The notes: generated by a model from the letters alone, not told the origin. Positions 6,627-49,000 are shown, counted from the stretch's first letter. The stretch: 64,000 nt of DNA from Lachnospiraceae bacterium (GCA_017444015.1 JAFSXN010000190.1:2618-66617), one strand, 5' to 3'. Program-made: numbers and translations.

Positions 6627-7184
6627 TTATCCTTCGATTTCGGAAAAGTCGATGGAAAGATCCTCGTAAATTCCGACCGGAACAGTATCCTTAAAAGAGT
6701 AGATCTGAAAATCGAAGTCCTTTTTCGGACCGTTCAGCCGGTAGACCATGACCTCGCTCTTCATCGGATTAACGACCCAATACTCCCGTACCCGATAGTC
6801 CCGGTAGAGGTTCAGCTTTGTGAGATAATCGTAAGCGGTATTCCCGGGAGAAGCGATCTCGATGATCCAGTCGGGAGCGCCGTTTACCCGCTTTTCATTG
6901 ATCTTATTCGGATCACAGACTACAAAGAGATCCGGCTGAACGATGGTCAGGGGCCGCTCCCTCAGCTTGACATCGGTAGGGGCGAAAAATATCCGGCAGT
7001 GCCCCTTTTTTCGTTTCAGATAATCCTTGATCCGGTAATATAATTCACCGGAAATCTCCTGATGCCGGATCGATGCGCCTGCCATATCGTATACGATCCC
7101 GCCGATCACCTCCACCCGCGCATCGCCGGGAAGCTCCTCATATTCTCTGAGCGTCAAAGTTTCCAGTTGTCTTGCTGCAGTCAT
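6627..7184 (-). CDS. Uma2-family (DUF820) putative endonuclease
   Basis: EYEELPGDARVEVIGGIVYDMAGASIRHQEISG..., VQPDLFVVCDPNKI, GAPDWIIEIASPGN and YRVREYWVVNP. The preferred start is the second Met (7184), with a perfect GGAGG 5 nt upstream. The track start is 7199. Confidence 0.8.
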   Translation of the reverse strand: MTAARQLETLTLREYEELPGDARVEVIGGIVYDMAGASIRHQEISGELYYRIKDYLKRKKGHCRIFFAPTDVKLRERPLTIVQPDLFVVCDPNKINEKRVNGAPDWIIEIASPGNTAYDYLTKLNLYRDYRVREYWVVNPMKSEVMVYRLNGPKKDFDFQIYSFKDTVPVGIYEDLSIDFSEIEG

Positions 7185-7450
7185 AAGTTCCTCCGTCATT
7201 ATAAAGCTGTACTGAATGGTTACAGGGAAACGATATTGTTGCTACGCTGCTATTGTAGCATACCCGCGGGCTGTTTTTCTACTCCTATGTCTAAAAGACG
7301 GTGAAAATGCCTACCGCGATGACTTGCGACTGGATCATCGATCCGATGGGGAAGAGGATTTCCGTATACGATGGGGATTTCTTTTCGAGTCCATCAAACT
7401 GCGATCGTAAATTATTCAACTTAATTCGTAAAATAATCAACTTTATTTCT

Positions 7451-7473
7451 GCCCCGTTTCCGGGGCTTTTTTT
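7451..7473 (+). terminator. Hairpin plus T7 tract (orphan terminator or attenuator) upstream of giant gene 1
   Basis: GCCCCG-TTTC-CGGGGC followed by TTTTTTT. No intact + strand gene ends here. A near-twin hairpin lies upstream of giant gene 2 at 33911. Confidence 0.55.
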
Positions 7474-7636
7474 GTCTTATTTATTGTAGGGTATTAATAT
7501 AATTATGCCCGTTGATCCCGTTGGGGAGCGGGATATGAAATAAGGGGTCAATATTGCGGGAATACTGGGAAATAACTGGGATTTCTGCGTCTTTTTATAC
7601 TTAAAAACAGACAGGATTGAAGAAGGAGAGATTGAG

Positions 7637-10600
7637 ATGATGAAGACAAGAGGGTTCAGGTCGTTTGTAGCGATGCTTGCTCTGGTGTCCATGCTGCTTG
7701 AGAATACGGCAACCGTTTCCGTATTCGCGATGGAGGGCGATGCCTCCGGGCAGCAGGCGCAGGAGACTGTAGTCGAAACGGTTTCGGAGTCCATACCTGA
7801 GGGCGACGAAGCGGTAACAGAGCCAGAGGCAGCTCCTATAGAGGAGCAGACGCAGGAGACTGTTTCCGAGCAGGTACAGGAGGAATCCGTTACGGTAGAA
7901 GAACCTCAGGCGGAGGAGACTTCGGACGGTGGAGAAGCTTTTGAGCCGCAGGTCGAGGTGACCGTGGATAATCCGGAGGAATATAATAAGGAAGCTTCTC
8001 CGGAAGAGACCGTGAACGAGGACATACCTGAGACCCTGTCGATCCTGGACGGAAACCGGATCGAGGCAAGCGGTTACCAGGATCTATATATAGCGGTAAA
8101 TACAGATCAGATGAACGACAGGGATTCTTTCCGTATCAGGATCGACGGTCTGAACAGCGAGGCGGTCTATGACGACAAGCTGAACGGATCCCTTTCCAAG
8201 TCCGATGCGAGTATTTATAAGCTGGAGAGGCTGGATAAGGCTTCTCTTACGATTTCCGCGGCAGAGCTTTCGGAAGGAATGACGGTTGAATATCTGCTGC
8301 GTGACGATAACTATCCTCAGATCAATCTGATCTCCGCACCCGAACCCGAAGCGGAAAAGATCCTGAAGGTATCTGAAGATGGGAAATCTCTCGAAGGCTC
8401 CGGATATGATGATCTCTCCGTTACCGTTAATACTACGGAGCTGAAGAGCAATATTCATTTCAGTCTTGTTTTGGGAACAACTGCGGGTGTATCCTGCAAC
8501 GGCGATCCTGTTGACGGCGCGATCGAAGGACTGTCAAAGAACGCCGGTACGATCAATCTCTCTGATTTAGACGCTCAATCCTTTGTTTTATACATCGTTG
8601 GTGAAAATTCCAACACAATAGCTGCTGATTATTCGATCGTTTCCGAGGAAAACGGGGCGGTCCGCGTCAAGGTCTATGATTCCGGGGAGGAGCAGACCGT
8701 AAAGCGGGTTTATGAATATGAGGATGAGGACGTTAAAGTAACGGCGACCATCGAGAAGGCGGAAGCCGTACCGGATGACGCGTATTTCTCTGTGACGAAG
8801 ATCGAACCGGACTCTGAGGAATACAACTTTAATTCTTATATGGATGCGCTGAATGACAATGCGCAGGATGGTACCAGCTATCATTCCGGCAATACGCTTC
8901 TTTATGATATCGCATTTTACACAGATGAGGACAAGACCGAAGAGATCGAGCCGGAGGAGGGTTCGGTCAGCGTTGCTATTCAGTTTAAGAAGGATCAGCT
9001 GAATAGCGAGATCGGTGTTGAAAAAGAAGATGATATCGAGATCACTCACTTAAAAGAAAATGAACAGACAATAGAAGCGGAGACTCTGGAGTCTACGGTT
9101 TCTCCTGAAACGGGAGCGCTGGAGTTTGCAACGGAGAGCTTTTCTGTTGTTGCAGTGACAAATAGCAAAGGGCTTGAATCGTACAAGTTTTCTTATACAG
9201 CTACTGATTGGGCGAATGGAACGCATCCTTATGCTGTCGAAATGACCATCAGTACAAGCGATCTGAATGATAAGCTGAAGGATATGAGCGGGAAGAAAGC
9301 CCCTGATCTTCTCTACAGGGATGCAAAGCTCTATTATGGGGAAGTAAATAACAGTAAAGAGATAGATGGATATATCCAAAAGTTTACGAACTGGCAGAAT
9401 GTTGAAGGATATGCTGAGTTTGTAAAAGCGAACTTCACCGGCCTTCCGTCGATCAATTCAGGAATGAACTGGTATGATTATATTAAGGGTGTATATAGCT
9501 ATGGGCTTTCGTATAACGGCGGAAATGATGGGATTGATATCAGTGAGTGCGAGATCGACACGAAGATCACATTTAATGACGACTATTTATCCTCTACTCT
9601 GGGAATAACCAGTGAAGATGATCTTGCGGTTGTCATTGCTACTCCTAAAACAGGGAAAAAGGCCAAGGATGAGCCTAAAAAAGATAATATCTATGATTAT
9701 GAAAATATTTCTACAGCCCAGGATTTGCAAGTTGATTTGACCTCTGGGGCAAATAGTATTTCATTTCATTCGACAGGTGGATGTGAATTACTCCTGATGA
9801 AGATTGAAGGGGCTGGGGCAGGAACCAATGGAACAGGACCATATGTACCTAAGGTAAATTCGAGATACTATACACACACAGAGATTATGACCGGGATCGG
9901 AAATACTGCGGTCACAGATGGGGACTTAGGGAACGCTGAGGATTATGGTATCGTTGCCAATGAGTTCAGGTTTGGCGACCATATGGATTCCAATGTAGCT
10001 ACTGGAAAGATCATCCTGGATCACATTGCGTTTGATCACGATACGTATACAAATAACACAGGTCAGAGCATTCTCGCGTCAGTTGTGGAAGGGGATTCTG
10101 ACAGGTGGTATTCTGACAAACATCATAATTCTCCGATAACAATATTTACAACGGATGCTGTAAAGAAAAAATATGTTGATGATACGGTGGATACCGATTT
10201 GCGCTCCAGAGTAAACGATGGCAGGATAGTACTTGATACCAGGTATACAGAGAATCAATTGCAGACTTATGTTACCAAAATGGTTAACGGAACATTGTCT
10301 GAAACGTTGTCAGAGATTACACAAAATACGAATCGTTTTATAGATATCACAGGAGGAAAGAGTTCGGCTGGGGGTTATGTTATTGATTTAACAAACTGTG
10401 AGGCTGGAACATATATTATTAATTTTGCTGAAGGTGAATATGAAAAATATTTTATCGCTGAAGGGTCTGATCGAGGAGATCAACCGCTTAAAATCGCGTT
10501 AAAAACTAACCAGAACATAGTGTTCAATATTCCGGATGATAAGGTTGATCTGGTACAGTTGCAGGCCTGTATTCGAGATAAGGAGGAAGATCCGTATCAC

Positions 10601-13600
10601 TATCTTTTGTCTAATGATGGGGAAGGCGATGAAAGGACGACTGCGGTTATCGAGAGGATCATATGGAATTGCTATAATGCTACTGGCGTAGATATATTAA
10701 AGCCTACCTTTGGCACGATCCTGGCACCAAACGCCGAGGTTATCATTGATGATGTTAGCTCGGGCTGGGTTGTGGCTGATAAAGTGCATAACAACGGTCA
10801 CGAATGGCATTTCTTCTCGAACAAGATTGGTAAGAGTCCTATTGTGAATGTAAATAGTGTTTCTTTCCCGTTTGCTGTACATAAGTCCTTTGTTACAGCC
10901 GGGACCTGGCCGGCAGGAGAAACCTTCAGCTTCAAACTCGAAGCGGTAACGAATGGCGCTCCTATGCCGACAGCGGTTACTACGGTAGAGGGAGTTGAGA
11001 ATACGGTTATCCGGGATACAGCCGGTCCGGTTTCTGCCGACAGTCCGAGCGCGGAGTTTTCGGATATTTCCTTCTATCCTACGGCAGACGGTACCGGGCA
11101 GACCTATATCTATAAGATCTCAGAGGAGCCGGGTGGAAACGGGGCAGTAAATTATGATTCCACGGTTTATTATGCGAAGGTTGAAGTAAGTACAACGATC
11201 ACAGAGACAAAGGATGCTTCCGAAAATGTTACCGAGGTCACAAGAACAGCAGGCACTCCGGTTGTTACCTATTATACGGACGAAGCCTGTACCGAGGAGA
11301 CAAAGGCAGCTCCGCAGAGTCTGAACTTTATCAATGATGTATATGATGGTGAGATCGAGTTCAAGGTAACAAAATCTCTGGTTGAGAGTGATAAAACAAC
11401 AGAGGCTGATTGGATCAGGGATTCTTCGTATTCCTTTATATTGGATGGCGAGGGTACTGCGCCTATGCCTGAAAACGATTCGGAAAACGGTGTAGTTGTC
11501 AGTGAATCCGCGGACGAGAGCGGGAATACGAATAAGACGGCGACTGTAACGATTGATCAGAAGGATGCGATAAAATCCTTCGGGAAGATCACGTTCCCGT
11601 TAGTACAGGCGAATTATGTCTATACGATCTCGGAGGGAGAGCTGGACGAAACGCTTGGGAAGATCGTTAAGAAGTCGGAATACAGTTATCGGATCACGGC
11701 AAAGGTCACCCCAACTCCCGGAGAGGGTGAGGCGAACGTTACCTATGAGGTTGAAAAGTTAGACAGTAACGGGACTGTGCTTGAAACAAAAAATGCTCTG
11801 GAGTCTCCTTTTGAGTTTGTCAATGAGAAGCTTCCGTCAGCATCCATAACGTTTAACATTACGAAAACCTTTGACGGCGATGAGTGGTATGACGAAGGCT
11901 TTGCGTTCACGCTGTCAGAGACGGATTCCAACTTCCAGCCGAAGGAAGGCGATCGGTACAATCATCCGGTAGTTATTAAGAATGATGAGAATACGAAGGC
12001 TGATGGACTGTTGACCGCTTCGGATGTGCTGGAGCTGAATTTCACCTCGGAGGATATCGGTGAGCACTACTATATTCTCCGTGAGGTAGGTACTTATACC
12101 AATATTGAAAGGGATCCCAGTGAGTATAAATATAAGGTAAATGTAGCGTTAAATGAGGATGGTACTTTAACGGTTTCCTACTGGGATCTTACGGAGACCG
12201 AGACGCTGTATAATGAGACTCCTTACCCTCCCGAGACGCATTATGATATTGATACCAGCTTTAATAATACCAGGATAGCCAGCCTGATCATCGGGAAAGA
12301 AATATCCTCTACTCTTCACGTTGTTTGTGAAAGAATGGGCGATCAGGTTTCGGTTCCTGAACCCCTTATGGGCTCAGGCCATACTCACAGGAGAGCGTAC
12401 TGCGGAGATCCCAGTCATTGGGTATTCCGTACCGATAAAGATGGAGTTGTTACCCTGTGGGAACTTCACTCCGGAATGACTGGGGGAGAGCTTCAGGCTA
12501 CGCTTTATACCGATGATAAGTACAATGTAAAGATGTCTCAGGATCAGATCAAGGCGATCAAATCCGGTGATATGCTCTATTTTACGACCTATAATGACAA
12601 GTTTCAGCATTTTGGTCATGCTATAGGAATGGATCCAAACAGCGAGATCACTGATAAGGGTCCGTTCAGCTTTGCTGTTAAGGACAGTAACGGGAAATAC
12701 TATGATACAGAGGGCAGACAATATGATGCAGCTCCGGCTCTTTCCATCAATGCCGGGCAGCAGCTGAAGTTTTATAATCTTGAACCGGGAACATATACGG
12801 TGGAAGAGGTTGACGGAAGCAAGAAGTATACGGTCACCGTTAAAGATGAAAACGGACAGGCTGTTGAAGTGACCTCCGGCGAGTCCGTTTCTGTAGAATT
12901 AACAAACGGAGCGACCACGACAAAGGAGCTTACCTTTAACAATGAGGCCAAGTGGTGCGTATTAACGATCGTTAAGGAGCTTGTATCGGACAGCAGTACA
13001 GGACCGTTCTATTTTGTCATTACTTCGGAGAACGGCGAAACGGTTAAAACCGTTGAGATTCCTGATATATCGAAGGATAAGACTGTATTTATCAGTGATC
13101 TTACGCCGGGAGAGTATACGATACAGGAAACGGATGCGGACGGCAATGTTCTGATGCAGGATGTCAGGTATCATATCACGATGACTGCAAGTACCAGTAC
13201 ACAGGCAGGAGCGAAAGAAGACAGTCCGACGACTTATCTTAAGAGTGATTTGAATCGTATTGATGTTTCGTTAGGCGCGGGTACGAAGACTACAGTCACC
13301 GTAAAGAACAAGGCGGCCGGGCTTATCCTCAAAAAGACACTTAACGGAACGGTACCCTCTGATGAAGCCGGACGGACCTTCTACTTTAAGGTCAACAAGG
13401 TCTCAGGCGGCAATATCAGTGATCTGACCGCGGACGAGCTTGGAAATATCAAAGTCGTTTATGAGAAGGATGGAAACAAGGTTTCCGAGGCTGTATCGTC
13501 GATGCCGATTTCTGTTACGGTCGGGGCTGACGGCAAGGGTGAGGTTGAGCTTGCCGGGTTACCCTGGCTGTCAAGCGGGTATTATCGGATAACGGAAACG

Positions 13601-16600
13601 GATCAGAACGGAAAAGAGTTAAGCTTTGGTTATCCGTATACCGTTGCGGTCACAAAATCAGATAAGTATACGGACCTTGATAAAAACGGCGAACTCAAGG
13701 AAGGCACAAGTTCTATTACTTTAACGGACAGATGCTGGATCCAGGAAATCTATCCGGAAAAGACCTTCCAGGTCGAATTTGTCAATACCCCGACCGGGAA
13801 GCTGACGATCAGCAAGAAGCTCGTTCCGGAAACAGCAGGCAGCGGGAAGACGTATTATGCTGTCCTGACCAGGACGCTCAATAACTCAACGTATTACTAT
13901 AATATAAGCAAGAATGACTTCGAGGCGGAGAGACAGGCCTTTTCGATTACTCCGGGTACGGATATTGAGGTAAAAGGTCTGAAAACTGATGCGGTTTATG
14001 CGGTATATGAGTCGGATCAGAACGGTAATGCTCTGGCTCAGGATGAGAAATACCATATCAGCCTTACCGCGGACGGAACAGTAGCTGTAGCGAACGATCT
14101 TACGGCAACGGCGGAATTCAGGAACGGGAATTATATCGGAAGCGTAGAGATAACGAATACGCTTGGTTCGCTTACGCTCAATAAGAAGGTGACGGACAGC
14201 CGGGATGAAAACGCTGGCGGAACCTTTGAATTTACCGTGACCAGGGAGTTTAACGGTACGAAGTATTACTATGCCGCAAACGGAACGGCAAGTACGACCG
14301 AGACGAAGATTTCCGTGACTGCCGGAACACCTGTCACGATTCCGGATCTTCCGTTTGGAACCTATACGGTAACGGAAACCGACAGCAAGATCGCGGATTA
14401 TGTCGTATCGGGAACAGGGACTGTTGAGATAGACGGAAGTACCGCAAAGACGGTCACTGTAGAAAATACAAAGATCTACGGCGAGGTTACCCTTACGAAA
14501 TATGACGGGGAAGAGACGGCAGAAAATCTAAAGGGACTTAGCGGGGTCAAGTTCCAGCTCAAGACCGGAGACGGCGGAACCGGACAGACGACGATCCGGG
14601 TATCCGGAGCAAACGGAAGCTATCAATACGATACTGCCTCTCTGGATGCCACCATGGAAACCGACAGCGATGGAAAGATCGTTGTTTCGGGACTTCCGCT
14701 TGGAACCTACAGCTTTATTGAAACAGGGGCGCTTGACAGCTATGTCCTGGATGATACGGCAAAAACCTTCACGCTTGTCAAGAGCGGGACAAATACTACG
14801 GTATCCTATGCTGTGAAAGTATATAATACGTCCTTTGCAGGCGGCGTGAAATTTAAAAAGATCGACGCTGATAATAAGGAGAACACAGACGCAGGCCTGG
14901 GCGGAGTGAAGTTCGAGCTTTATAAGAAGGTATCGGATGATCCGCTGAAATATGATCCTTATGTAACTGATACGGATATTAAGACAGATGAGACGGCCGG
15001 AACAAACCTTGGCTGGGTATACTACTATGGCCTGCCTAAAGGGGATTATTATCTCAAAGAGGTTGCCGTGAACGGATCAAGTACGAACGGCTATCTGGCG
15101 ACGGATGAGCTGCTGTACTTTACCATAGGAGAAGATGATGATTGTAAGAAGAGCGAAACAGAGAAGTATGTGACTCTGTCCGCTCCTGCTTCGGGAACGA
15201 CCAGCGTGATCACCTTTAAGGATGGTGTCGCGCTTGTTGGCAACAGCAGGATCCCCGGAAGCGTAAATATCGAGAAGCTCGGGCACAGCGAATATGTTTC
15301 GGAGGATGAGCCTCTTCCGGGCGCAGGCTTTGAGCTTTGGGCAAACGTTAAGGAGGACGGCTCAAAGACAAGCAACAGCGGTTATGAAAAGCTGAGAGAG
15401 GGAACAACGGATCCGGATGGAAAGCTGAGCTTTTCGAACCTTCCGTGGGGGAACTATATTCTGAAAGAAACTACGGTTCCGGACGGATATACCGCTATGG
15501 CGGATAAGAGCTTTACCATTGGGATCGGTACAGACGAAAAGCTGACCTGGAGCTATACAGAAGCCGGGGAGGGAGCGATCGTTGATAATAAGATAACGGG
15601 CGATGTTAAATTAGAGAAGAAGGATAAGACGACAAGTGCCGCGATCAATGGCGCGAAGTTTAATCTGTACCGCGGGAAGAAGAGCGATCTGAGTTCCCTG
15701 TCCGCGGATAATCTGGCTAAGCTCAAGAAGGGCGAAGCGATCACGGATACCCGGTTTACGAAGGTGAACGAGTCTGAGCTTGTCGTAACGGAAGGAAAGA
15801 TAGACAGCTCGACCTTAGCCAAGCTCGGGGAGCTGGAATACGGTGATTATTTCTTTGTTGAGTTCGAGGCTCCGAAGGGCTTTACGGTCGAGGAGGATCC
15901 CATCTATGAGGTTGTGATCAACGGTGTAAAGGAGAGCAATAATGTTGACTGCTATCTTACCGTAGAGAATAACGAGAAGAAGGGGCAGATAACGCTTCGC
16001 AAGGTCGATGCGGATAATGATAACGCGGCGATCACGGGTGAGATCTTAGACGGAGCGAAATTCGAGCTTTGGTTCAAACAGAGAGAGTCGCAGAAGACCT
16101 GGCTTGAAAAGCTGGTCGGCGCTATCGCCGGAGCATTCGGAAGCGACGGGTACACCAAAAAGAAGGAGATCGAATACGCTTACGCGAACAACACGCTGAG
16201 TCTGGTCGGCGATGACGCGGATATCATGCTGAATGACGATGGAAGCGTTACGGTCGAGAATCTGGATTGGGGCGATTATTACTTTATCGAAAAGAACGCG
16301 CCGAAGGGTTATATCACTCCGGTTGATGAGGAAGGAAACGATATACGGACCGGGCATTTCCAGATCGGGCTGGACAGTGCAGGGGAGTACGCTGATCCGG
16401 AAGGCTTTGAGATCACAAGGACGATTTCCAATAGAGAAGACACAGGATATGTCCAGTTCTACAAGGTGGATTCGAGAGATCACTCCATAAAGCTTGCGGG
16501 TGCTGAGTTTAACCTGTATTACGCGGAGGATGGGATCAATTATGAACCCTACGATGATACCACGTATACCTCACAGGAGGATCCCAGGATATTGAAGATC

Positions 16601-19600: not shown

Positions 19601-22600
19601 GCCATGGAAAGCGGCGAAGAATTCAAGCTTGGCGGCGTAAAATTTGAGCTGTATAAGGTGGCGGAGACCGGAGCGGATGAACGGATCGATGAGGCGGTTT
19701 ACTCGATAGACCAGGGCGGGACGGATACTTCCGCCGCGATCGGCTCTGTATCCTATGACGGACTCGGAGTAGGCAGATACTACTTTAAGGAGGTCGAAAC
19801 ACCGAATAACGCATATACTCTGGGCGGACCTTACTACTTCCATATCGATCCTGCGGACGATGGAAAGGTTGTAGGGCTTGATTATGACGGAGTGGACTTT
19901 GAGCGGATCCCTGCTACGGATACCGAAAGGTATGACAGGGTGGTGAATACTCCTTCTACGAACGGTCACGTATCCCTGGTAAAATATGAAAGCAATGACG
20001 GAGCTGCGACAGAGATACCAATCCAGGGAGTTGTCTTTGAGCTTTATCGTGTTAAGAGCGGAACGGAAACCGAGGATACTCTTGTAGATACTCTTACGAC
20101 GAACGGGGACGGAAAGATCGAAAAGACGGGACTGGCCTGGGGGAATTATTACTTTAAAGAGAAGTCGGTTCCCGGGGATACCTCTGTGAGCGGATCCTAT
20201 GTGATCTCAACTGCTTCGACCGAGGTGTTTACGATCGGAAAAGCTTCTATGAGTAAGGAGCTTACGGTCTATAATGACAAAAAGTACGGTTCTGTCTCTA
20301 TAAGCAAGACCGATCAGAACGGAACCGCGCTTGATGGCGTAGAGTTTACGATCTACAAGGGCTCTGTAGCAGAAGCGAATTATGTAGGTAAGATGACCAC
20401 GGATGCGCAGGGCAAGGCTTCCTACGGAGATCCGGATGAAAATAAGGATGGTCAGAAGGGACTTGTCTGGGGTGAACATTATGTACTTGTCGAGTCAAAG
20501 CCCCTGACGGGATATCTGCCTGCCCAGAACATAGGATTTGACGTCAAGAAAGAGAGTCTGCATTTTTCCTATGACATTACGAATGAGAAAATCAAGGGTT
20601 ATGTCAAGCTGTTCAAGCGGGACAAGGAGACAAAGCAGGGTATCGCCGGAGTTTCCTTTGAGCTGTACAAGGATGCCGGGACAGGAAACGCGGCAGATGA
20701 TACAAAGATCACCGGACATACCTATACGACCGGCAGTGACGGCTACGTTTATCAGAACGAAGCAGGCGGAACACAGACAAATAAGCTTGGACCTTTGGAG
20801 TACGGTGATTATTACTTCAAGGAGACAAGCACGCCGGAAGGATATAAGCCGTTTACCGGAAAGAAGACCTTCAGTATCAGAACGAACGAGGAGGTCGTTG
20901 ACCTGACAGGGGATAATTCTCTGGATAATGAGCACAAGCTCGGAACGGTCAAAATCCATAAGGTCGGCAGTGACGGCAGTTCCCTGAACGGCGCGAAGTT
21001 TATGCTGTACGGAAAGGACAATCCAAAATCCCTCAGAGAAGCCTGGCAGAAGGTTACTACCGGACATTATAACGAGACGGAAGGGTATTACGAGACCGGG
21101 GATTCGGGCTATCTGGTGATCGAGGATCTTCCGATCGGAAGCTATGATCTGGTAGAAATTGAAGCTCCTCAGGGGTATGAAATTCAAAAGGACGGAAAGA
21201 AGAACAAGGTCTATAGCTTTACGATTATCGAAACGCAGCTGGACACCGTGATCGAGCCTATGGACATCGTAAATGATCAGCTAAAGGGTTCGGTCAGACT
21301 TATCAAGAAGAGTTCCGATCCTGCGGATACCATACCGGATGGAGCGCTCTTTAAGCTGATGTTAAAGACCGCGGGGGACGCGGATGATATCAACGTTTCA
21401 AGCCTTTATAAGGATGTGGCTTCCGCTTCCTATAATGCTTCAAAGGATGCGTTCGGGACTGTAAACGGAAAGATCGAGATCCTTAACGCGCTGGAATGGG
21501 GTACTTACTATTTTGAAGAGATCGCTGCTCCGGAGGGCTATGTATTTAACGGGGCAAAATCAAAGGATCTGGTTATAGGCGCAGGGAATGACAGCGATGG
21601 CGTTATGGCGATCCAGACGGATGAGATCGAGAATGACAAGATCTACGGCTATGTACGCCTTAAGAAATCCTTCTCGCCACTAGCGGATAATTCTAATGCG
21701 ATCACAAAGCTTTCGGGTATTGAGTTTAAGCTGATCGATGAGAGCGATGATTCGGAAGTTGAAATTCAGGACGCGGATGGGAATAATCTGCTTGTGACCG
21801 ATGAAAATGGCGAAATTTCCGCTGAAACGATCGGACCGCTGTCGTATGGAACCTATCATTTTGTTGAGTTTTCTCTCAGTCAGGAAGCGATCGATGCCGG
21901 CTATGCACTGAACAATGAGCCTTCGGAGTCGTTTAAGATCGACAGCGTTAATACGAAAGACACTGCGAAGGAGATCACGTTTGTCAACTATGCGATCTCC
22001 GGAAGCGCGCACGTCGATAAGACGGATGGGACGAATAAGATTTCCGGGATCCTCTTTAACCTGTATCTGAAGGAGGATGAGGATAACGAAAACGCAGAGC
22101 CGTACCGCGTCGCGACTTCGACAGCGGAGGGCGTTGACTTTACGAATATCCCTAAGGGAGAATACTTCTTTGAGGAGGATGCGGCTTCTGCGGCAAGCCT
22201 CGGGTATACGGCGGATACAGCACGCTACTATTTTACGATCGTGTCCCAGGGAGACCATATTACAGAGTTCCGTAAAAAGGAGGCAGATTCTTCAGAATTT
22301 GCTGAGGGGACAGTTTCTGAGATCGTAAACGAAGAGATCCAGGAGGGTCAGATCTCTCTTGTAAAATATATTGAGGCTGAGCCGACGGACGAGATCGCAA
22401 ATAACGCGAAGCCTGCGGACATTTCAAAAGCGGACTTCGTTTTGAGAAACGCTGTGGATCACTCTATTGTGTATACAGCTGAGGAGCTGAAAGCAAATAA
22501 TATCAGCAATGATTCCAGCAGGATCACTGTGAAAGTCGGGAAAGGAAGCTACTATTTTGAAGAGGTGAATCCTGTTCCCGGATATGCGATCGATGGAACC

Positions 22601-27799: not shown

Positions 27800-27831
27800 A
27801 TGATGTAATGAAATAATAGTTGTATACACGG

Positions 27832-27978: not shown

Positions 27979-29568
27979 ATGAAGGTTTTCAATACAACGA
28001 CGATTTGCATACCATCAAAGCATTATATGGTCGATCTTACGGAACGTGTGGCGGAAATAAAGAAGATGATCGACGCCGGAAAATATTTTACGATCAACCG
28101 CGCCAGACAGTATGGAAAAACGACCACGATCACAGCTATACAAAATGAGTTGAAAGAGGAGTATGAAATCGTGAGCTTGAGCTTTGAAGGGATCGGTGAT
28201 GCCGGCTTTGCGGATGAAACTTCTTTTGTAAAAGCCTTCTGTCGAAAACTGAAACGTGAGTATCGAGCCGGACGAAGTCTTCCGGAGAATGTAAAGGCTC
28301 AATTTGAAGACTTTTTGCGCCGGGATAAAAAAACGGGGATGGATGAGCTCTTTGACGCGTTTCTGGATTGGTGTGAGGAATCGGAAAAGGGAATTGTGCT
28401 GATTATTGATGAGGTTGACAGTGCGTCCAATTATCAGGTGTTTCTGGATTTTCTGGGTGGTCTTCGCGATAGCTATATTAATCGTGACGCAAAAGGAATG
28501 CCTGCATTTTTGTCCGTGATCCTTGTCGGCGTAAACGATATAAAGCATTTGAAGAGCAGGATCAGGCCTGACGTGGGACATCAATACAACAGCCCGTGGA
28601 ATGTTGCTTCTGATTTCAGAATAGATATGAGTCTCTCGGAGCATGGGATCTGCGGTATGCTTACGGAGTATGAGGCAGATCACCATACGGGAATGGATAT
28701 TGCTCTTATGGCGGCTCAGCTCAGGAGCTATACGAACGGGTATCCGTTTCTGGTAAGCCGGCTTTGTCAGCTGATCGATGAGCAGCTGGTACCGGAGACA
28801 TTCGGATCGCTTTGCGGAGCCTGGACGGAAAGAGGGTTGAATGAGGCGGTAAAACTGCTTCTTACGGAGAATAATACGCTGTTTCAGTCCCTGACGAAAA
28901 ATCTGGAAAATAATCCGGAGCTCAAAGCTGGGATACGAAGTATTCTGATGGAGGGTGCGAGGATTCCCTACAACGCCCAGCAGGATGATATTGCCCAGAT
29001 GGAGATGTATGGATTCATAAGGAATGAATATAGTACAGTACGTATAGCAAACAGAATTTTTGAGATGATGCTTTATAATCTGTTTCTTTCTGATGAGGAG
29101 CTGAAGAGTAATGCTTTTTTCCGAAGAGGAGATCTTGCAAGGAATATTTTCGTCCGGGACGGAATCTTAAATATGCGGCTGATCCTGGAACGTTTTACTG
29201 AAACATATATGGAAATATACGGACCGTTAGAAGAGAAATTTAAGGAAAAGGATGGGAGAGAGTTGTTTCTGCTCTACCTGAAGCCGATCATAAACGGGAC
29301 CGGAAACTATTATATAGAGGCTCAGACGAGAGATCAGACGCGAACTGACGTGATCGTAGATTATCCTGGGCAGCAATATATTGTTGAATTAAAAATTTGG
29401 CGAGGGGATCGATACAATGCTGAGGGAGAAAAGCAGATCAGTGAGTATCTGGATTATTTTGGCCTGTCAACGGGATATATGCTGAGCTTTAACTTCAATA
29501 AACATAAGGAGCAGGGAGTCAGGCAGGTATATATCGGAGAAAAACTATTGTACGAAGCTACTGTCTGA
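27979..29568 (+). CDS. AAA-ATPase_like domain protein with a C-terminal PD-(D/E)XK nuclease-like domain
   Basis: The N-terminus KVFNTTTICIPSKHYMVDLTERV...KYFTINRARQYGKTTT matches the PF09820-type predicted ATPase pattern as I recall it, with Walker B LIIDEVDSA. The C-terminus YYIEAQTRDQTRTDVIVDYPGQQYIVELKIWRG fits a D...E-x-K nuclease core (PDDEXK_9-like). Confidence 0.75.
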   Translation: MKVFNTTTICIPSKHYMVDLTERVAEIKKMIDAGKYFTINRARQYGKTTTITAIQNELKEEYEIVSLSFEGIGDAGFADETSFVKAFCRKLKREYRAGRSLPENVKAQFEDFLRRDKKTGMDELFDAFLDWCEESEKGIVLIIDEVDSASNYQVFLDFLGGLRDSYINRDAKGMPAFLSVILVGVNDIKHLKSRIRPDVGHQYNSPWNVASDFRIDMSLSEHGICGMLTEYEADHHTGMDIALMAAQLRSYTNGYPFLVSRLCQLIDEQLVPETFGSLCGAWTERGLNEAVKLLLTENNTLFQSLTKNLENNPELKAGIRSILMEGARIPYNAQQDDIAQMEMYGFIRNEYSTVRIANRIFEMMLYNLFLSDEELKSNAFFRRGDLARNIFVRDGILNMRLILERFTETYMEIYGPLEEKFKEKDGRELFLLYLKPIINGTGNYYIEAQTRDQTRTDVIVDYPGQQYIVELKIWRGDRYNAEGEKQISEYLDYFGLSTGYMLSFNFNKHKEQGVRQVYIGEKLLYEATV

Positions 29569-30223: not shown

Positions 30224-30252
30224 TTGACACCCGGGCTGTGTTGCAGTATAGT
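30224..30252 (+). promoter_or_regulatory. Near-consensus promoter placed so that the ATPase mRNA would be leaderless
   Basis: TTGACA (30224-30229), a 17-nt spacer, TATAGT (30247-30252), 6 nt, then ATG 30259. There is no Shine-Dalgarno sequence before the ATG. Confidence 0.45.
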
Positions 30253-30258
30253 ACAGGC

Positions 30259-31704
30259 ATGAAAAAACAGCGAATAATCGGAAGAACTAAAGAATGTGAA
30301 CGCCTTGACGAATGCATGAATTCAGACAAGGCACAGTTGATCATTGTCTATGGACGAAGAAGAGTTGGTAAAACTTATCTTATAAATGAGTATTACCATA
30401 AGGATTTCGCGTTTAAACTCACGGGCATGTATGGGAAGGGCAAGGAAATCCAACTAGAGAACTTTGCATCAGAGCTGGGGCGCAAAACCCGAAAAAAACA
30501 AGATATACCGGACAACTGGCGACAGGCTTTTGAGGAATTACGTGACTATCTTGAAGCGCTTCCGGAAGACAAAAAACAGGTAGTGTTCTTTGATGAGATG
30601 CCCTGGCTGGATAATCAAAAGGGGGAATTTCTCTCCAGGTTTGAATGGTTTTGGAATGACTGGGCGTCAACAAGGGATAATCTTGTTTTTATAGTATGTG
30701 GATCTGCAACATCCTGGATGGATGAGAAAATAGCGAATAATAAAGGGGGATTGTTTAATCGGCAGACCTGCAAGCTGTTTTTAAAGCCGTTCAAACTTTA
30801 TGAAGCTGAGGCATTCCTATTAAACAAAAACATCAAATGGTCAAGATATGATATTGTCAGATGCTATATGATTATGGGCGGCATTCCATATTATCTTGAT
30901 CTGTTGAGCAGTAAGCTGTCTTTCTCTCAAAATATTGACAGAATTTTTTTTTCGGAGGACGGAGAGTTATGGGATGAATTTGAGCATCTTTATAAAACTC
31001 TATTTTCAAACAGTGAACACTATGTAAAGGTCGTTGAAGCTCTCAGTACTAAAGCCTCCGGTCTTACGAGGGGCGAAATTGCGGATGAAACAGGCCTGAA
31101 AGGTAATGGAGACCTGAGCAAGATACTGAAAGATCTTGTTCTGTCCGGTTTTGTACGTATATCGGGGTTCTATAAGAAAAAGAAAAAGGATACATTATAT
31201 CAGCTATGTGATTATTATACAGCTTTCTACATGCACTACCTCAAAGATAGAAACGGTAAAGATGAGCATTACTGGACCAATTCCACTGGGGATCGTTCAA
31301 GGAGTATATGGGAGGGTCTTACGTTTGAACAGGTCTGCAAAGATCATATTATGGCTATAAAATATAAGCTGGGAATCCCAGGTGTGCTGACGGAAGAATC
31401 CTCATGGTTCCAACGCGGAGATAAGAAAAAAGGAATTCCCGGCGCCCAGATTGATTTATTAATTGAGCGGAGTGACAAAGTGATCGATATCTGTGAGATA
31501 AAGTTCTCCAGTGCGGAATATACGATCGATGAAAAGATTGATATGAGTCTCAGAAACAAGGCTGAGGTTTTCAGAAATGCCACGGGGTGCAGGGATACCG
31601 TTCAAATAATAATGATTACGACACATGGTGTTAAGGAAAATGAATATAGTAGCGTAATCCAGAATCAGGTTACTATGAATGATCTATTTATAGAATGGCA
31701 ATAG
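30259..31704 (+). CDS. AAA+ ATPase, Arch_ATPase/DUF234-type (paralog of 986..2431)
   Basis: MKKQRIIGRTKECERL, Walker A GRRRVGKTYL, Walker B VVFFDEMPW, IVCGSATSW. The C-terminus is QIDLLIERSDKVIDICEIKF. The track ORF starts at GTG 30238; ATG 30259 is preferred. Confidence 0.8.
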   Translation: MKKQRIIGRTKECERLDECMNSDKAQLIIVYGRRRVGKTYLINEYYHKDFAFKLTGMYGKGKEIQLENFASELGRKTRKKQDIPDNWRQAFEELRDYLEALPEDKKQVVFFDEMPWLDNQKGEFLSRFEWFWNDWASTRDNLVFIVCGSATSWMDEKIANNKGGLFNRQTCKLFLKPFKLYEAEAFLLNKNIKWSRYDIVRCYMIMGGIPYYLDLLSSKLSFSQNIDRIFFSEDGELWDEFEHLYKTLFSNSEHYVKVVEALSTKASGLTRGEIADETGLKGNGDLSKILKDLVLSGFVRISGFYKKKKKDTLYQLCDYYTAFYMHYLKDRNGKDEHYWTNSTGDRSRSIWEGLTFEQVCKDHIMAIKYKLGIPGVLTEESSWFQRGDKKKGIPGAQIDLLIERSDKVIDICEIKFSSAEYTIDEKIDMSLRNKAEVFRNATGCRDTVQIIMITTHGVKENEYSSVIQNQVTMNDLFIEWQ

Positions 31705-37000: not shown

Positions 37001-40000
37001 GTCAAGAGAAGACAGGAATCGAATGGAAGCTTCTATTACTATATTAACGAGAATGATACAAAGTTTGACGGGGAAGCGGGACAGGCTCTTCTTGCCAGAT
37101 GCTGGAGATATAAAGAGTACAGTGGATCAAAGCATATTACACTGGATTCCGCGAGCCATACCAGCGGTGAATTAAAAGCTGCTGTAAGAGGTATGGTCAC
37201 AGGAACAAAGTCAGAAAGTCTGGCAGGAGAAGCACAGGCGTATAATTTCGCGGATATAGCAGATTACTATGCGCAGGATAAGGACGTTCCCGAAGGAAGC
37301 GGAGAAACGGCAGGGAAGTATACGATCGATCTTCGTAACAGCCCGGCGGGAACCTACTATGTGAATTTTGCCGCGGGAGAGTACGCCAGTAAGGTTGGCG
37401 GATCTGCGGATGGTCTGCATATCCGGCTGAACAGTAATCAGAATATAGTTTTCAACATTCCGGATACAAATGTTTCGCTCAATCAGTTCAGTCTGGATAT
37501 CGGAAACGGAGCCGGCTACCGGACCTCCGGAAAAAATAATGAGGGTGATGATGACTATGCTAAAAGCGTGGTCTGGAATTTATACAATGCTACGACCGCA
37601 TCGAATTCCGGGTCGATCAACGGCATTGTCTTGGCACCTTTAGCAGCGTACAGCATCGGGACGACTTCTACAGGATGGGTTGTTGCTGATTCCGTCAGCA
37701 ACGGCGGAGAGTGGCACTGTGTCTGGCAGGAAATGCCTGCAAATCCCGCTGAACCGGAAGAACCGGGAGTCGATACCCCGGCTACAGTAGAGATCCCTGT
37801 CAGCAAGAGCTTTGCGGAGGGGGCTGCCTGGCCGGAGGGTGATTCCTATACCTTTACCCTGACAGGTCAGACGACAAGAACGGTTGAAACGACGAGCACG
37901 GGGAGCTGTTATACGGCTACTGCCCGGATCCATCAGACTCCGGAGACCGGCAGGGAGGATTATCGGATCCAGGTCGATGCGATCCATGGAGGAGATCACA
38001 CTACCGATCTTCAAACGGTGAAGATCGCCTTTAATCAGCCGGTACAATGGGTTTCCTGCAATGCGCAGGGAGCTGCGTTAGTAAGCGGCAGCGGAACGAA
38101 CCAGCTGACCTTTACTACGACTTATCATCAGAATCCGACGGATCGGATCGGTTTCGGCGATCTGGTTGTTACTTCGGATGGAGGTCTTGCCGTTACGGAC
38201 ATCGAAGTGACGGATGGATACGGAACAACTACGGTTACGGGATCGGAAACGATCACTGCGGAGACGGAGGCGGGATCGGTTACGATTGGGGCCGCTGCCG
38301 GTACAGGCTCGATCGGTCCTCTGACCTTTGAGCCGGCAGATACTGCCGGAACAGTTTCCTATTATTATACCTTGGCCGAAAATGAGCCGGAGTATTCTGA
38401 CGTGATCAGGGACCCGAAGGTCTATGAGATCAGGGTCGACGTCACGACTATGATTTCCGGAAAGAATAGGACGGCAACCGCGAAGATTTATTATAAGAAC
38501 ACGAACGGGGATTATGTCGAGCTTCCCGCGGGACAGAGCTTTACCTTTGAAAACAGGATCTCCGCAGGTCATACTCCCGCGCAGGTCACCTTTAATGTTG
38601 CAAAGAGCTATCAGGGAGATTGGACCGGTAAGAGCTTTACCTTTACTATTTCCGGAAGTGAGGGCGCGCCGATGCCGAAAAAGGATGGCCAGACCGTTAC
38701 TTCTGTTACAACTGCAGCGGACAGCAGTCAGGGAAACAGTCAGACCCTGAGCTTCGGGACGATCGAATTTGCGGCGGGGGACAGCGATACAAGCGCGAAT
38801 AAAGTTCCCTATACCTATACGATTACGGAAACGCCAGGTACGGATCCGGATATCGCGTATGACCCGACGATATATACGATCACATTAAATACCTATACGG
38901 TCAAAGAGGGAAATAACTGGGTCGCCAAGGTCGAAAAGGAAGGGGCGGACAGCACGGAAAGCTATACCGGCGAGACTCTGAGCTTTGAAAACAAGATCGC
39001 TACCGGGAATCTTACGGTACAGAAGAGTGTGACCGGATGGTGGAGAATCACCTGCGAGCGGATGGGGAACGAAGCGTCGGTCGCAGATCCGGTCTTTGGA
39101 CCTAACCATACCCATAGAAAGATCTACTGCGGCGATCCGAGCCACTGGAGGATCGATCTGGATGAAAACGGAGTTCCGACGAAGCTGACGGAGATCGACA
39201 CACCGTATCCGACCTATAATAATGGCGAGCTGCCCTGCGTTATCTATACGGATGATACCTATACTACCGTACGGGATATCAGTACGATCAGGCAGGGCGA
39301 GACCATTTACTGGACTTCGGTGCATGACGGGATCAAGGTGCAGTGGCGTCATTATGGTACCGTAGAAAGCACAGGATCCTTCGATTTTACCGTTTCGAAG
39401 GATGATACCTATTACTATATGGAGAACGGAGTAGTCAAAGAAAGCAGTTCTCCTGTATCGTTTTCGCTGGAGGCCGGAGAAAAGGTTGATTTTACGGGCC
39501 TTCCGGTTGGAGAATATACGGTTACGGAGCTCGGCTCTGAGAATATCTTTACCGTTTCCGTAAAGGATGGGGAAGGCTCTGTACTTCAGACGTCGGCAAA
39601 CGGTACGGATACTTCAGCGACCGTGAATGTCACGGCAGGAGAAACTTCTGCGACCGTCAATTTTGTCAATCAGCTGACAGCCGGGACGCTTCGGATCAAG
39701 AAAAATGTCAATCCAGGCACTGTGGATTATTCCGGGCAGAACTTCTATGTACGGGTAACAGGGCCATATGACTTTGACGAGCTGCTAACCCTGACGATCG
39801 ATGAGGAGGGGAAGGCGTCTGTTGCGCTTACGGATCTTCCGGTTGGTACCTATACGGTACAGGAGACCAATGCGGACGGGATCCCGCTTGCGCAGGATAC
39901 TCCTTACAAGATCCATATGTGGGGATACGGACAGGGCGACAACTGGTCAAATAACGCTTCGATCAATCTGACAGGAGGAAGCGATATCACTGTCCGGATC

Positions 40001-46000: not shown

Positions 46001-49000
46001 AAGGTAATCTATCTGGGAAGCGGAGATGATCATCGTGTCGTAAATACACGAAAGCAAGGCTCCGTCAGACTGTTAAAGACCTATCGTGACGACGATGAGA
46101 CCGGGGTTCTCGAGGGAGCCGGCTTCAGGCTGTACCGTATGGCAGGATCGGAGCCTGCCTCCGGAGATGAACTGGTTCTGATCAACAGCCAGGAAAGCGC
46201 CGTTACCGATGAAAAGGGCGAGATCAATGTTACTGGACTGCCTTGGGGCGACTATTACTTCGTAGAGATCTCCGCTCCTGATGGCTATGTATTTGATCCG
46301 GTTGCGGCGGAGACGACGTACTACCGTTTCCGGGTGGATGAGACGACAGCCGCTGCAATGCAGACGGTTTCGGTTGAAAACGAGAGACAGACCGGAAGCC
46401 TTACGATCTCGAAGCTGGATTCTACGGATCACACGAAGGGCCTTGATGGTGTAGCCTTTAACCTCTATAAGATAATAAAGGACAGTGACGGGAAGGAAGA
46501 ACGTACGTTAAAGGCTACGTTAGCTACGTCCTCAGGCGGACAGCTTTCCTACAGCGGACTGCCCTGGGGAGATTACGTTCTGGTAGAGACCGGAACGATA
46601 AACGGCTATGTTCTGGATACGGCATCCGCGGAGCATCCGTTTACGATCGGTAAGAAGAACGACAGGCTCGTTCTGGAATATACCGAAACGATCACCAATC
46701 GTCCGGTTCAGGGCTATGTTGAGCTGGCGAAGGTGGATTCTGAAAACAACAATATCGTCCTTGGCGGCGTTGCTTTCGATCTCTATTCCGGGATCGCGGG
46801 GAGCGGAACGAAGGTCGGCGAATATATGACCGATGCTGCCGGAAAGCTGTTCCAGACTGTTAAAAACGGCGACGGGACAGAGAAGACAGAGACGAAGATC
46901 GGACCTTTGAACAAAGGAAATTACTATTTCCTTGAAAACGCGGACCGTTCTACGCTGAAGGGCTATCAGTTCAGTGATCAGGCGATCTCGTTCGCGATTA
47001 CTGAGGATGGTAAGACGATCTCCTTTACGGGAAATACGAATTCGATCAAGAATACGAAGAAGACCGGCAAGGTACGGATCAGAAAGATCGACAGCGAGAC
47101 GAAGGACGGGCTGGCGGGAGCGGAGTTTACGCTTTACGCAAGGGAGCCGAAGTCCCTGGGTGAGAGGCTGGCATCCTTACTGACGGATGAATTTAAGAGA
47201 CAGACCTATACGACAAAGAGCGATGGTGTGATCGAGATCGAAGGCCTGGATTGGGGAAAATATTTCCTGGCAGAGACCAAGGCGGCTCCGGGGTATGAGC
47301 TGCTTGCGGACAGTGACGGGAAGAGCGTTACCTATGACTTTGAGATCACAGAGGCGAATGCCGGATCGACGATCGTTCTGAATGATATCACGAATACGAA
47401 GCTGAAGGGCTCCGTACAGTTGACAAAGACGGATGAAGAGACGAATGCGCCGGTAGCCGGAGCGAAGTTTAAGCTCTATAAGATGACGGGAAGCGAGCCT
47501 GTTCTTTCCGGAACGAACGCCGATACAGCCGTTTCTGTTGACGGTGATTCCGAGTGGACGACAAACGACAAGGGCGTTATCCTTGTACCCGGACTTGACT
47601 GGGGCAGCTACTATTTCGTTGAGACAGCGCCTGCCAGGGGGTATGAGGAATTTGAAGAAAACAGCGTCGTTTCCGCGGTTATGACGATCGACGCTTCAAA
47701 TTACAACACCGGCTCTAAGGCTATGAATACGCAGACGGTAGCTCTTACGAATAAGAAGGGCTATGGCTATATCTCGCTGCAGAAGATCTTTGTGAACCCG
47801 GATAAGAACGGGTCGACCGGAGTATACTGGAGCGTTGCCTGCGACGTGATGGATAACGCGAAATGGGCAGGTTCGGATGTCGGTGTCTGGGGCGCGGATG
47901 AGATCCGCAATACCGAAAAGAATAAGAACCGTGAAGGCCATCAGAAGATCTACTGCGGGACCGAAGAGAACCAGCTGATCTATATGGATGACAACGGTGT
48001 ACCGACCGGTATGCTTCATGATAAGAGGGGTTCTACCAGTGAGCGTTACGCCTACGGTGATATCAACACCAAGCTGTATACCGATGAAACGTATCAAACG
48101 GAAAGAGATTTCTCTACGTTAAAATCCGGTGAGTATATCTATTGGACGACCTGGAACGGCGGCCAGAAATGGTATCATCACGGAACGATCGAACAGACGC
48201 TTCATCTGACGGATGAACAGGTGGAAAGCCTGTATTATCCTCCCGATGATTCCGGCTGGGATCTGAGCGGAGTGACCTACCGTCTGATCAATGATGATAC
48301 GAGCAAGATCGTCGGTGAATATGTTACCAATTCGGACGGAGTTCTGACAAACGGCGAGGGCGAACCGGTGATCGGACCGCTTGCGTACGGGACCTATCAT
48401 TTTGAAGAGGTTGCTTTGTCCGACAGAGCCAAGGCAGCAGGCTATCAGTTAAGCAGCCAGCTGGCGAGCTTTGTCATCAGTAAGGAGAGTACGTTAGAAC
48501 ACGCCATATCGAATCCGCTTCCGTATGTCAATCACGTCATGGATGTGAAGGGCGGAGCGACCTTCCAGAAGGTTGACGCGGACAATGAAAATACGATCGT
48601 AAAGGGAATTTCCTTCAAGGTCTACCAGGACGGCGCTACGGATCCGACAACGACTGTTGTTTCGGATGAGAACGGTACCGTAAAGGTAGAGAATCTTCCG
48701 ATGGGTACCTATTACTTCGAGGAGGATGGAGATACCGCGAGGAACGCGGGCTATGTACCCGATACGACGAAGTACTACTTCCGGATCACCCAGTATGACA
48801 ACGGCAAGACCCTGTCTGTACATAAGGACAGCGTTTCCGGAGATCTTACGGGTACGGTAACGAATGAAAAGCAGAAGGGAAGTATTTCTCTTGCCAAGCT
48901 TGGGCATGATGATAAGAAGCTTCCTCTGGCAAGGACAGTCTCTGACGGCGGAGCGCAGTTTGAGCTGTGGAGCAGTCTCAGTGACACCGAGCCTTACTAT

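Follow-up and report, generated by a model that had tools for sequence, protein, structure and literature searches.

The CnaA and CnaB folds, in which an isopeptide links the first and last strands, accept inserted adhesion domains (PMC12617251). The vWFA domain of RrgA and the thioester domain of Spy0125/Cpa are each a separately folding domain spliced into a loop of an isopeptide immunoglobulin (Ig)-like stalk domain, and domains nested in CnaA or CnaB are displayed from the stalk while the isopeptide bears the load (PMC12617251). We describe here a domain that is likewise spliced into such stalk domains and that occurs in three copies in two giant surface proteins, G1 and G2, encoded on a 64,000-nucleotide stretch of DNA from Lachnospiraceae bacterium (GCA_017444015.1 JAFSXN010000190.1:2618-66617), referred to below as the window. 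The Lys, Glu and Asn of an isopeptide host domain are present here as well. In contrast to the nested vWFA and thioester domains, however, the module is much smaller (~110 amino acids (aa)), and its hallmark is a Cys2His2 set rather than a metal-ion-dependent adhesion site (MIDAS) or a Cys-Gln thioester. The domain itself is new, although the architecture in which it is used, with a functional domain inserted into an isopeptide-type stalk domain, is already known. Annotation mostly presents the giant Ig-repeat adhesins of gut Firmicutes as stalks without features, and the module provides them with a candidate binding part.

A Cys/His module nested in CnaB-type stalk domains

A preliminary description of this DNA had pointed to a segment rich in Cys, His and aromatic residues at 12314-12657 on the + strand, nested in a SpaA-like domain of G1, and to two similar segments in G2. 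The peptide quoted for the first segment is its exact translation, and the three segments proved to be homologous and alignable, with pairwise BLASTP E values from 2e-27 to 1e-8. Copies 1 and 2 are 40% identical over 107 aa (E 2.4e-27), copies 2 and 3 are 36% identical over 127 aa (E 1e-22), and copies 1 and 3 are 33% identical over 86 aa (E 9.5e-9). When the modules were masked, no similar segment was found in the rest of G1 and G2 (best E 0.6), and a profile of the three copies detected no fourth copy in the six frames of the window. The boundaries that we assign are given in Table 1; the range originally proposed for copy 3 (47813-48262) does contain the module, but it also takes in about 20 aa of trailing linker.

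The signature residues are all retained in the three window copies. In copy 1 they are Cys1564 (nucleotides (nt) 12326-12328), His1584 (12386-12388), Cys1589-Gly1590 (12401-12406), Glu1609, Tyr1648-Phe1649 and His1658-x-Gly1660 (12608-12616). The signature Cys and His residues are Cys1684, His1704, Cys1709 and His1783 in copy 2 (also termed G2a), and Cys4613, His4646, Cys4651 and His4725 in copy 3, in which the loop between the first Cys and the first His is longer and the conserved Glu is replaced by His.

Pfam profiles, an excision test and AlphaFold agreed that the module is a separate unit inserted after the first strand of a SpaA/CnaB-type domain, as the preliminary description had proposed. 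The host domains scored above the curated Pfam cut-offs (copy 1, SpaA (PF17802), 26.2 bits versus 23.1; copy 2, DUF7601 (PF24547), 29.6 bits versus 27; copy 3, SpaA, 30.2 bits), but with the insert present their matches began only at profile position 19-39. In the excision test, the insert was deleted in silico and the Pfam profiles were then rescored. For copy 2, coverage of DUF7601 was extended from 19-115 to 1-115 of 116 positions, with an increase in score from 29.6 to 36.0 bits, and DUF5979 was covered from position 1 to 103 of 104. For copy 1, coverage of DUF7601 was extended from 39-114 to 4-114, and the score rose from 18.8 to 22.9 bits. Removal of the insert therefore restores the DUF7601 match in both cases, and copy 2 does lie at the place equivalent to copy 1. 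Nesting of copy 3 in a SpaA-type domain is presumed from AlphaFold and by analogy with the other copies; its YGYxSLQKxF lead-in recurs in the homologues P0002 and P0020.

We modelled the copy 1 module together with its host domain using AlphaFold. A model made from the three window copies alone had a predicted local distance difference test score (pLDDT) of 60 and was set aside; an alignment of 54 family sequences gave a confident model, with a mean pLDDT of 79.6. In this model, two strands lead into the insert, which is followed by a tether with a pLDDT of 46, after which the Ig fold resumes. Within the insert, seven to eight strands and two short helices are predicted at pLDDT values of 82-97, and the tail of copy 1 (aa ~1667-1673) is a low-confidence linker (pLDDT 46). 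The Ig part of the model resembles the CnaB2 domain 8bdw (Foldseek TMt 0.55, prob 0.97) and pilins.

Three residues of the copy 1 host domain are in place for an isopeptide, i.e., K1554 in strand A, E1724, and N1769 in the last strand; among 15 embedded homologues, the Glu is kept in 12 and the Asn in 10. The isopeptide triad described for DUF7601 consists of a Lys in the first strand, a catalytic Glu and an Asn in the last strand (PMC12617251). Because of this precedent, we assign Lys1554 as the putative isopeptide Lys, with Glu1724 as the putative catalytic Glu and Asn1769 as the putative isopeptide Asn.

The reading that we favour, although we hold it tentatively and at somewhat less than an even chance, is that the module is a self-folding binding knob, probably stapled by a Cys2His2 metal site, and shielded from pulling force by the isopeptide clamp of its host. 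The module, a predicted all-beta domain of ~105-120 residues, sits between strand A and the rest of the CnaB (DUF7601/SpaA) domain, and an isopeptide between the host Lys (strand A) and Asn (last strand) would close a covalent loop around it. Because that isopeptide would join the first and last strands, and because the host domain has the Lys, Glu and Asn that it needs, tensile load would be expected to by-pass the insert, and the module would hang sideways off the stalk as a knob. What the analysis demonstrates is that the modules exist, are nested and form a family, together with their pattern of conservation and their gene contexts; the metal site, the binding role and the by-pass of force are inferred. 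The Ig domain plus insert makes a compact construct of ~230 aa for metal, cross-link and ligand work.

Table 1. Positions of the two giant proteins, the three modules and the parts of their host domains in the window
Feature	Protein residues	Window position (nt)	Strand	Basis
G1, giant surface protein	6720 aa	7637..27799	+	Open reading frame (ORF) list; Pfam SpaA and FctA
Host strand A, copy 1, RIASLIIGKEISSTLHVV	G1 aa 1546-1563	12272..12325	+	AlphaFold strands 3-11 and 15-19; excision test
Module copy 1	G1 aa 1564-1673	12326..12655	+	Translation, AlphaFold, family conservation
Host remainder, copy 1	G1 aa 1674-1773	12656..12955	+	Pfam SpaA E 9e-6, profile 23-89; Foldseek
G2, giant surface protein	6765 aa	34004..54301	+	ORF list; Pfam scan
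Host strand A, copy 2 (DUF7601)	G2 aa 1664-1683	38993..39052	+	Excision test
Module copy 2	G2 aa 1684-1790	39053..39373	+	Homology; site equivalent to copy 1
Host remainder, copy 2 (DUF7601)	G2 aa 1791-1894	39374..39685	+	Pfam DUF7601 E 1.2e-6
Presumed strand A, SpaA-type host of copy 3	G2 aa 4586-4612	47759..47839	+	Alignment with other copies, Lys invariant
Module copy 3	G2 aa 4613-4732	47840..48199	+	Homology; mid-stalk
SpaA-type domain body after copy 3	G2 aa 4754-4829	48263..48490	+	Pfam SpaA E 5.3e-7; E 3.3e-7 in excision run

Family settings and conservation of the Cys and His residues

Scoring 1.84 billion representative proteins with a profile derived from the three window copies alone yielded 121 clusters at E<=1e-3 and 41 at E<=1e-10. 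A word-indexed homologue search with copy 1 alone as the query found no relatives, and a scan of a genome collection with the three-copy profile returned only one Catenibacterium metagenome-assembled genome and one spurious locus, so that the representatives of that collection do not include the genome of the window. Members of the family occur in three settings. Some are nested in giant stalk proteins, which include an orthologue of G2 (P0002, 39% identical) and an orthologue of G1 (P0054, ~30-34%); even at this 30-40% identity, the positions of the modules are kept (1688-1803 and 4652-4761 in P0002, 1467-1579 in P0054). Others occur in proteins of 380-770 aa that run from a signal peptide through strand A, the module and the rest of the Ig domain to a long PT/E-rich linker and an xPxTGD sorting signal, and in which the module plus Ig domain is the sole folded extracellular part, at the tip. 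The majority, however, are stand-alone proteins of ~132-156 aa (typically ~140). Because the module occurs without any Ig host (in P0007, P0008 and P0034) and as stand-alone proteins of ~140 aa, it is, as judged from sequence, an autonomous domain, and it is not specific to adhesins.

Two proteins of the family, P0004 (L096, 1991-3154) and P0012 (L097, 5171-6601), are translated correctly only in genetic code 15 (TAG = Gln). Their genes have 5 and 33 in-frame TAG codons, respectively, with a GC content of 0.28-0.31, and each protein has a signal peptide, a module within an Ig domain, a linker and an xPKTGD sorting signal. L097 also encodes an ORF resembling a collagen-repeat tail fibre, an HNH ORF and large ORFs that look structural. 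By appearance, L096 and L097 are contigs of TAG-recoded phages, on which surface proteins bearing sortase-type sorting signals are encoded.

Conservation was scored across 248 unique near-full-length modules, of which 208 were stand-alone and 40 embedded. The two Cys residues singled out in the preliminary description, together with two of the His, were near-invariant (Cys1 99.6%, His1 96.4%, Cys2 100%, His2 99.2%). The Gly two residues past His2 was conserved to 99.2%, the Trp of Y-W-T to 97.2% and the Gly after Cys2 to 86%, and all four Cys/His residues were present in 39-40 of the 40 embedded copies. A Glu is also conserved to 91% in the family. The family signature is W-x-V-x-C ... H-x4-C-G ... 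Y-W-T ... H-x-G. Of the longer skeleton put forward from the three copies, C...H-x-[KR]-x-x-CG...Y-[FW]-T...H-x-G holds across the family, but 'D-x-N-GV-x-T' and 'LYTD' are features of a subfamily only. The embedded modules group as a separate subfamily: each had another embedded module as its closest neighbour (40/40), and mean identity was 46% within the embedded group versus 25% between embedded and stand-alone modules.

That only three among the many Ig-type domains of the giants hold a module, and that copy 1 has lost two family-typical Trp residues (changed to Leu and Phe), might suggest that the module is a passive spacer in the structure, or a remnant that has degenerated, and that it has no specific function. 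We regard this as highly improbable, because all of the signature residues are kept in 3/3 copies, orthologues of only 30-40% identity keep it at the same positions, and the module is the sole tip domain in the small relatives. Cys is, moreover, otherwise avoided in the giants, which contain 15-16 in ~6700 aa, i.e., it is rare outside the modules.

Because all four Cys and His residues are equally invariant in both the embedded and the stand-alone settings, and because there is weak covariation around them, the two Cys and two His may converge at a single site, for which a Zn-type Cys2His2 metal centre is the likeliest candidate. The covariation came from a mean-field direct-coupling analysis (Meff 163), in which couplings at invariant columns were disregarded and few usable couplings were left; columns 15 and 16, which flank Cys1, coupled weakly with column 44, after Cys2, and with columns 98 and 103, in the Y-W-T-T strand. 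Once the protein had been exported by Sec, in an anaerobic habitat, a metal site of this kind would hold the small domain together. Ligands would bind at the conserved aromatic surface (W, Y-W, W-H-H), and the module would probably be the binding end of the protein, because with its Ig domain it is the sole tip domain of the small relatives.

The invariant Cys pair could instead form a structural or redox-switchable disulfide, with the His and aromatic residues lining a ligand pocket that contains no metal. The preliminary description had suggested a disulfide, a metal or cofactor site, or a ligand pocket, all of which are plausible candidates. Consistent with a disulfide, both Cys are invariant, the covariation puts their flanking residues in contact, and a Mobiluncus giant adhesin with disulfide-cross-linked Ig domains is reported (PMC10619420). 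We consider a disulfide rather unlikely, however, because it leaves the equal invariance of both His unexplained, and because the stand-alone relatives are made in the cytoplasm beside an oxygen-sensitive radical S-adenosylmethionine (radical-SAM) enzyme. Lachnospiraceae are also obligate anaerobes, in which extracellular formation of a disulfide is not assured.

The preliminary description had not recognised the insert as any named adhesin domain. We looked for a confident match to a characterised family and this did not occur: Pfam-A, NCBIfam, PHROGs, PDB sequences and Foldseek gave no match that holds up. Pfam-A and NCBIfam had no match on the insert in the three copies and 16 homologues, with PHROGs also giving none, and the recurrent families in a scan of 54 alignment members were those of the host domain only. 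A Foldseek search of PDB and BFVD with the two-domain model as the query gave no match at E<=1e-3, and only pilin/CnaB from the host part. A full-text literature search found no description of the domain or of the radical-SAM cluster of its relatives. The family is absent from Pfam, NCBIfam, PHROGs and PDB, and has a sharp, easily mutated signature.

Some candidates were rejected individually. An NlpC/P60 hydrolase match was seen in 1/54 members (E 0.013, 15.9 bits versus a cut-off of 23), where it fell on 'GDMLYFTT..QHFGH'; the model has no long helix after the Cys, and the family was absent from the top 50 Foldseek matches listed. A thioester domain was rejected because neither of the alignments, of 74 and of 248 modules, showed an invariant Gln, and because Pfam gave no match to thioester domains. 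For the Ig V-set, PDB profile matches (E 0.24-5) to MOG and a megabody that contains a nanobody were tag artefacts, in which the module segment 'GETIYWTT...WHH' was aligned to the tobacco etch virus (TEV) site and His-tags of crystallised constructs; by fold, antibody chains appeared in Foldseek at a probability of 0.02-0.05 only. As a separate observation, 'GE.IYWTT....WHH' attracts TEV sites (ENLYFQG) and His-tags (PDB 1pko_A, 3csp_A, 8afe_D), and is a trap for automated annotation.

Like the module, thioester domains are Cys-containing functional domains on the isopeptide stalks of sortase-type surface proteins, sometimes within CnaB; they differ from it in being about twice the size, and in the module two Cys and two His are conserved without the invariant Gln. 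The precedent of thioester domains inserted in CnaB domains (PMC12617251), together with the invariant Cys and His, the Glu conserved to 91%, the neighbouring Gly residues (C-G, H-x-G) and the one weak NlpC/P60 match, might point to a small Cys-His(-Glu) enzyme or a covalent-adhesion warhead, akin to a thioester domain or a papain-like or NlpC/P60 hydrolase carried on the stalk. This is distinctly unlikely, given that the NlpC/P60 match was confined to a single member and below the cut-off, that the Foldseek matches listed included neither a hydrolase nor a thioester-domain fold, and that the Gln needed for a thioester is not invariant. In addition, the Glu is replaced by His in copy 3, two invariant Cys plus two invariant His exceed what a catalytic dyad needs, and the model lacks a long active-site helix after the Cys.

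Stand-alone relatives at radical-SAM loci

The stand-alone relatives were matched by the window-only profile at E values from 1e-23 to 1e-8 over nearly their full length. One example from gut Firmicutes, P0206, is annotated as 'hypothetical protein [Catenibacterium mitsuokai]'. These proteins have a leader of ~23 aa, MKKxWxxPxxxVxxFxANEYVAAC, with no hydrophobic core or signal peptide, and they also have two further near-invariant Cys residues and an invariant C-terminal Ser. The core C...H-x4-C-G...W...H-x-G is common to the stand-alone and embedded groups.

We examined the syntenies of Catenibacterium (L001-L010), L011 and L012, L013, and 80 metagenome loci. Across these unrelated syntenies, the stand-alone genes directly adjoin a gene for a radical-SAM/SPASM enzyme of 370-387 aa, which does not reach the cut-off of any NCBIfam maturase model. 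The enzyme was found in 63/80 metagenome loci; among loci with at least 3 kb on both flanks, its gene was no more than 5 kb away, and usually adjacent, in 23/25. There are one to three paralogous precursor genes per locus. In L031, the fullest operon (6637-13891) encodes, in order, an NTP_transf_5 protein, a precursor, PqqD, a divergent precursor with the same leader, the radical-SAM/SPASM enzyme, a ScmC-like P-loop protein, an ATP-binding cassette (ABC) exporter and an S24 (SipW-like) peptidase. To judge by these gene contents, the operon is apparently a pathway of the type that makes RiPPs (peptides produced by the ribosome and modified after translation), acting on a whole small protein and apparently undescribed. 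We found no account of a kinship between the module and radical-SAM-associated mini-proteins in the libraries and literature that we searched. If it is true that the relatives are radical-SAM substrates, they would represent an additional precursor class in human-gut bacteria. The family also connects sortase-type adhesins and the surface proteins of TAG-recoded phage contigs with a RiPP-like radical-SAM system that would have whole small proteins as its substrates.

Several further features of these loci were noted. RiPP-like operons, with precursors of ~130-145 aa, were seen also at L021, L023, L028, L046, L061, L091, L011 and L001-L010. The second precursor of L031 (9057-9446) has the same leader with a strongly divergent core, in which C...CG...IIW...H is kept and which ends ...KS; the same leader with a different core is typical of RiPP clusters. 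The ScmC-like protein had no kinase match among PDB sequences, and its assignment as a kinase comes from a precomputed Pfam ScmC label and a weak PEPCK_ATP match (E 3.4e-4). A CpsB/CapC PHP phosphatase gene and further capsule genes lie directly after the S24 peptidase gene (L031 13913-14770, L003 11974-12693). This CpsB adjacency, found in two synteny types, i.e., in 8/21 large metagenome loci and in Catenibacterium, is a faint hint of a link to capsule or exopolysaccharide, and of polysaccharide as the ligand, but one on which little weight can be placed.

QhpC, the small subunit of quinohemoprotein amine dehydrogenase, a periplasmic enzyme of Proteobacteria, is made with an N-terminal leader, and its Cys residues are cross-linked by a cytoplasmic radical-SAM/SPASM enzyme; the leader is removed, and export occurs via a dedicated transporter rather than Sec. 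The stand-alone relatives may be proteins of the kind for which QhpC sets a precedent; no sequence similarity between them was found, nor was any looked for, and QhpC is not directly informative on the Sec-exported adhesin copies. A second parallel is provided by lasso peptide clusters, in which the HPr-kinase-like PadeK/PsmK and the nucleotidyltransferase-like PsmN phosphorylate, and then glycosylate, a conserved C-terminal Ser (PMC9266682). The stand-alone relatives likewise end in an invariant Ser, and their operons encode ScmC-like P-loop and NTP_transf_5 proteins, although, unlike lasso clusters, they have no lasso cyclase or B2 protease genes. By analogy, the C-terminal Ser of the stand-alone relatives may be tailored as in lasso peptides. 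The parallel is not applicable to the window copies, where the chain continues into the Ig fold.

The embedded copies differ from the stand-alone proteins in several respects. The column-9 Cys specific to the latter was present in 204/208 stand-alone but 0/40 embedded modules. The window copies have neither this Cys, nor the leader, nor the C-terminal Ser, and the second extra Cys (column 76, LPCVIY) survives in copy 2 alone. This distribution suggests that three features (leader, extra Cys pair, terminal Ser) are specific to maturation, and that the shared Cys/His core is intrinsic to the fold or function. No radical-SAM, PqqD, ScmC-like, S24 or NTP_transf_5 gene was found within the window, and no maturation genes were found on the short contigs of three other embedded genes. 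The embedded proteins carry Sec signal peptides, whereas the stand-alone loci encode their own ABC exporter. Because the maturation genes, the leader, the Ser and the column-9 Cys are absent, and because export is by Sec, the adhesin copies are probably independent of the maturation machinery; the adhesin-borne version would then not be matured by a radical-SAM enzyme, unlike its stand-alone relatives.

Given the shared core signature, and a radical-SAM gene at 23 of the 25 well-flanked stand-alone loci, the adhesin modules could nevertheless be cross-linked in trans, by a radical-SAM/SPASM enzyme encoded elsewhere in the genome, to give hyper-stable knots in the stalk. We think this very doubtful. 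No maturase, PqqD, ScmC or S24 gene occurs in the 64 kb around the two module-bearing genes or on the short contigs of the three others, the embedded copies lack both the leader expected to bind a PqqD-type recognition element and the Cys specific to the stand-alone proteins, and the route of export is different.

In another, unlikely, interpretation, the window modules would be the Sec-exported, sortase-displayed branch of an undescribed superfamily. Its main branch would be a new class of ribosomal mini-proteins (~115 aa when mature) that are cross-linked by a novel pair of radical-SAM/SPASM plus PqqD, tailored on the C-terminal Ser by the kinase-like ScmC and the nucleotidyltransferase, exported by the ABC transporter and trimmed by S24. 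In that case, the role of the shared Cys2His2 set would be functional and not that of a structural staple, as a site for a metal, redox chemistry or a cofactor (e.g., copper, or one derived from the protein itself), and the adhesins and phage-encoded surface proteins would display this active centre.

Several points weigh against the metal-stapled, force-shielded binding knob that we favour. For copy 3, the excision test did not recover an N-terminal extension of the host match, and the covariation signal for convergence at a single site is weak. We know of no Zn or Cu motif that fits the C-x19-33-H-x4-C-x68-73-H spacing of the window copies, and there is no neighbouring ligand, metal transporter or thiol-oxidoreductase gene that hints at function. 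Because the closest relatives are probable radical-SAM substrates, the conserved Cys residues could be cross-link donors rather than metal ligands, and the negative result for a maturase covers 64 kb of the genome; one may be encoded elsewhere.

The giant genes and their neighbourhood

G1 and G2 share a common plan. Behind a Sec-type signal peptide comes a head containing FctA (Spy0128-like) domains; SpaA/CnaB-type domains then form a long array, which leads through a Pro/Thr-rich linker to a VGP[TV]TGD sorting-type motif, a hydrophobic transmembrane (TM) helix and a Lys/Arg tail; in G1, these C-terminal elements are VGPTTGD, the TM helix and a KRKK tail. G1 is identical to NCBI MBQ7565329.1, which is annotated as 'hypothetical protein [Lachnospiraceae bacterium]'. 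NCBI MBQ7565335.1, which is near-identical to G2, is labelled 'InlB B-repeat-containing protein', i.e., it is named for InlB B-repeats only. The head of G2 contains two Listeria-Bacteroides (Flg_new) repeats at 36200-36650 (aa ~749-880); no Flg_new match was reported in the first 2400 aa of G1.

The listed ORF start of G2 (34004-34072) is 22 codons ahead of a Met pair at aa 23 that resembles the start of G1, MMKTRGFRSFVAMLALVSML, and this second Met pair is probably the true start. The sorting motif of G1 and G2 differs from the canonical LPXTG. The last ~70 aa of both proteins (~27550-27796 and ~54050-54298) are 70-77% identical to those of orthologues that are otherwise just 30-40% identical; this conserved C-terminus contains repeated 'VLGAR' motifs, VGP[TV]TGD, the TM helix and the basic tail.

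Long antisense (-) ORFs lie within the giant genes at 20495-21187, 26222-27829, 27127-27741, 53102-54334 and 53263-54243, mostly over Pro/Thr-rich repeats, and are most likely compositional artefacts rather than genes. The giants are flanked and separated by three genes for ATPase_2/AAA_35-type ATPases, one of which has a PD-(D/E)XK domain, and a gene for a GGDEF diguanylate cyclase with a periplasmic-binding domain lies directly upstream of G2 (986-2431, 27979-29568, 30238-31704 and 31842-33863 for these ATPase and GGDEF genes).

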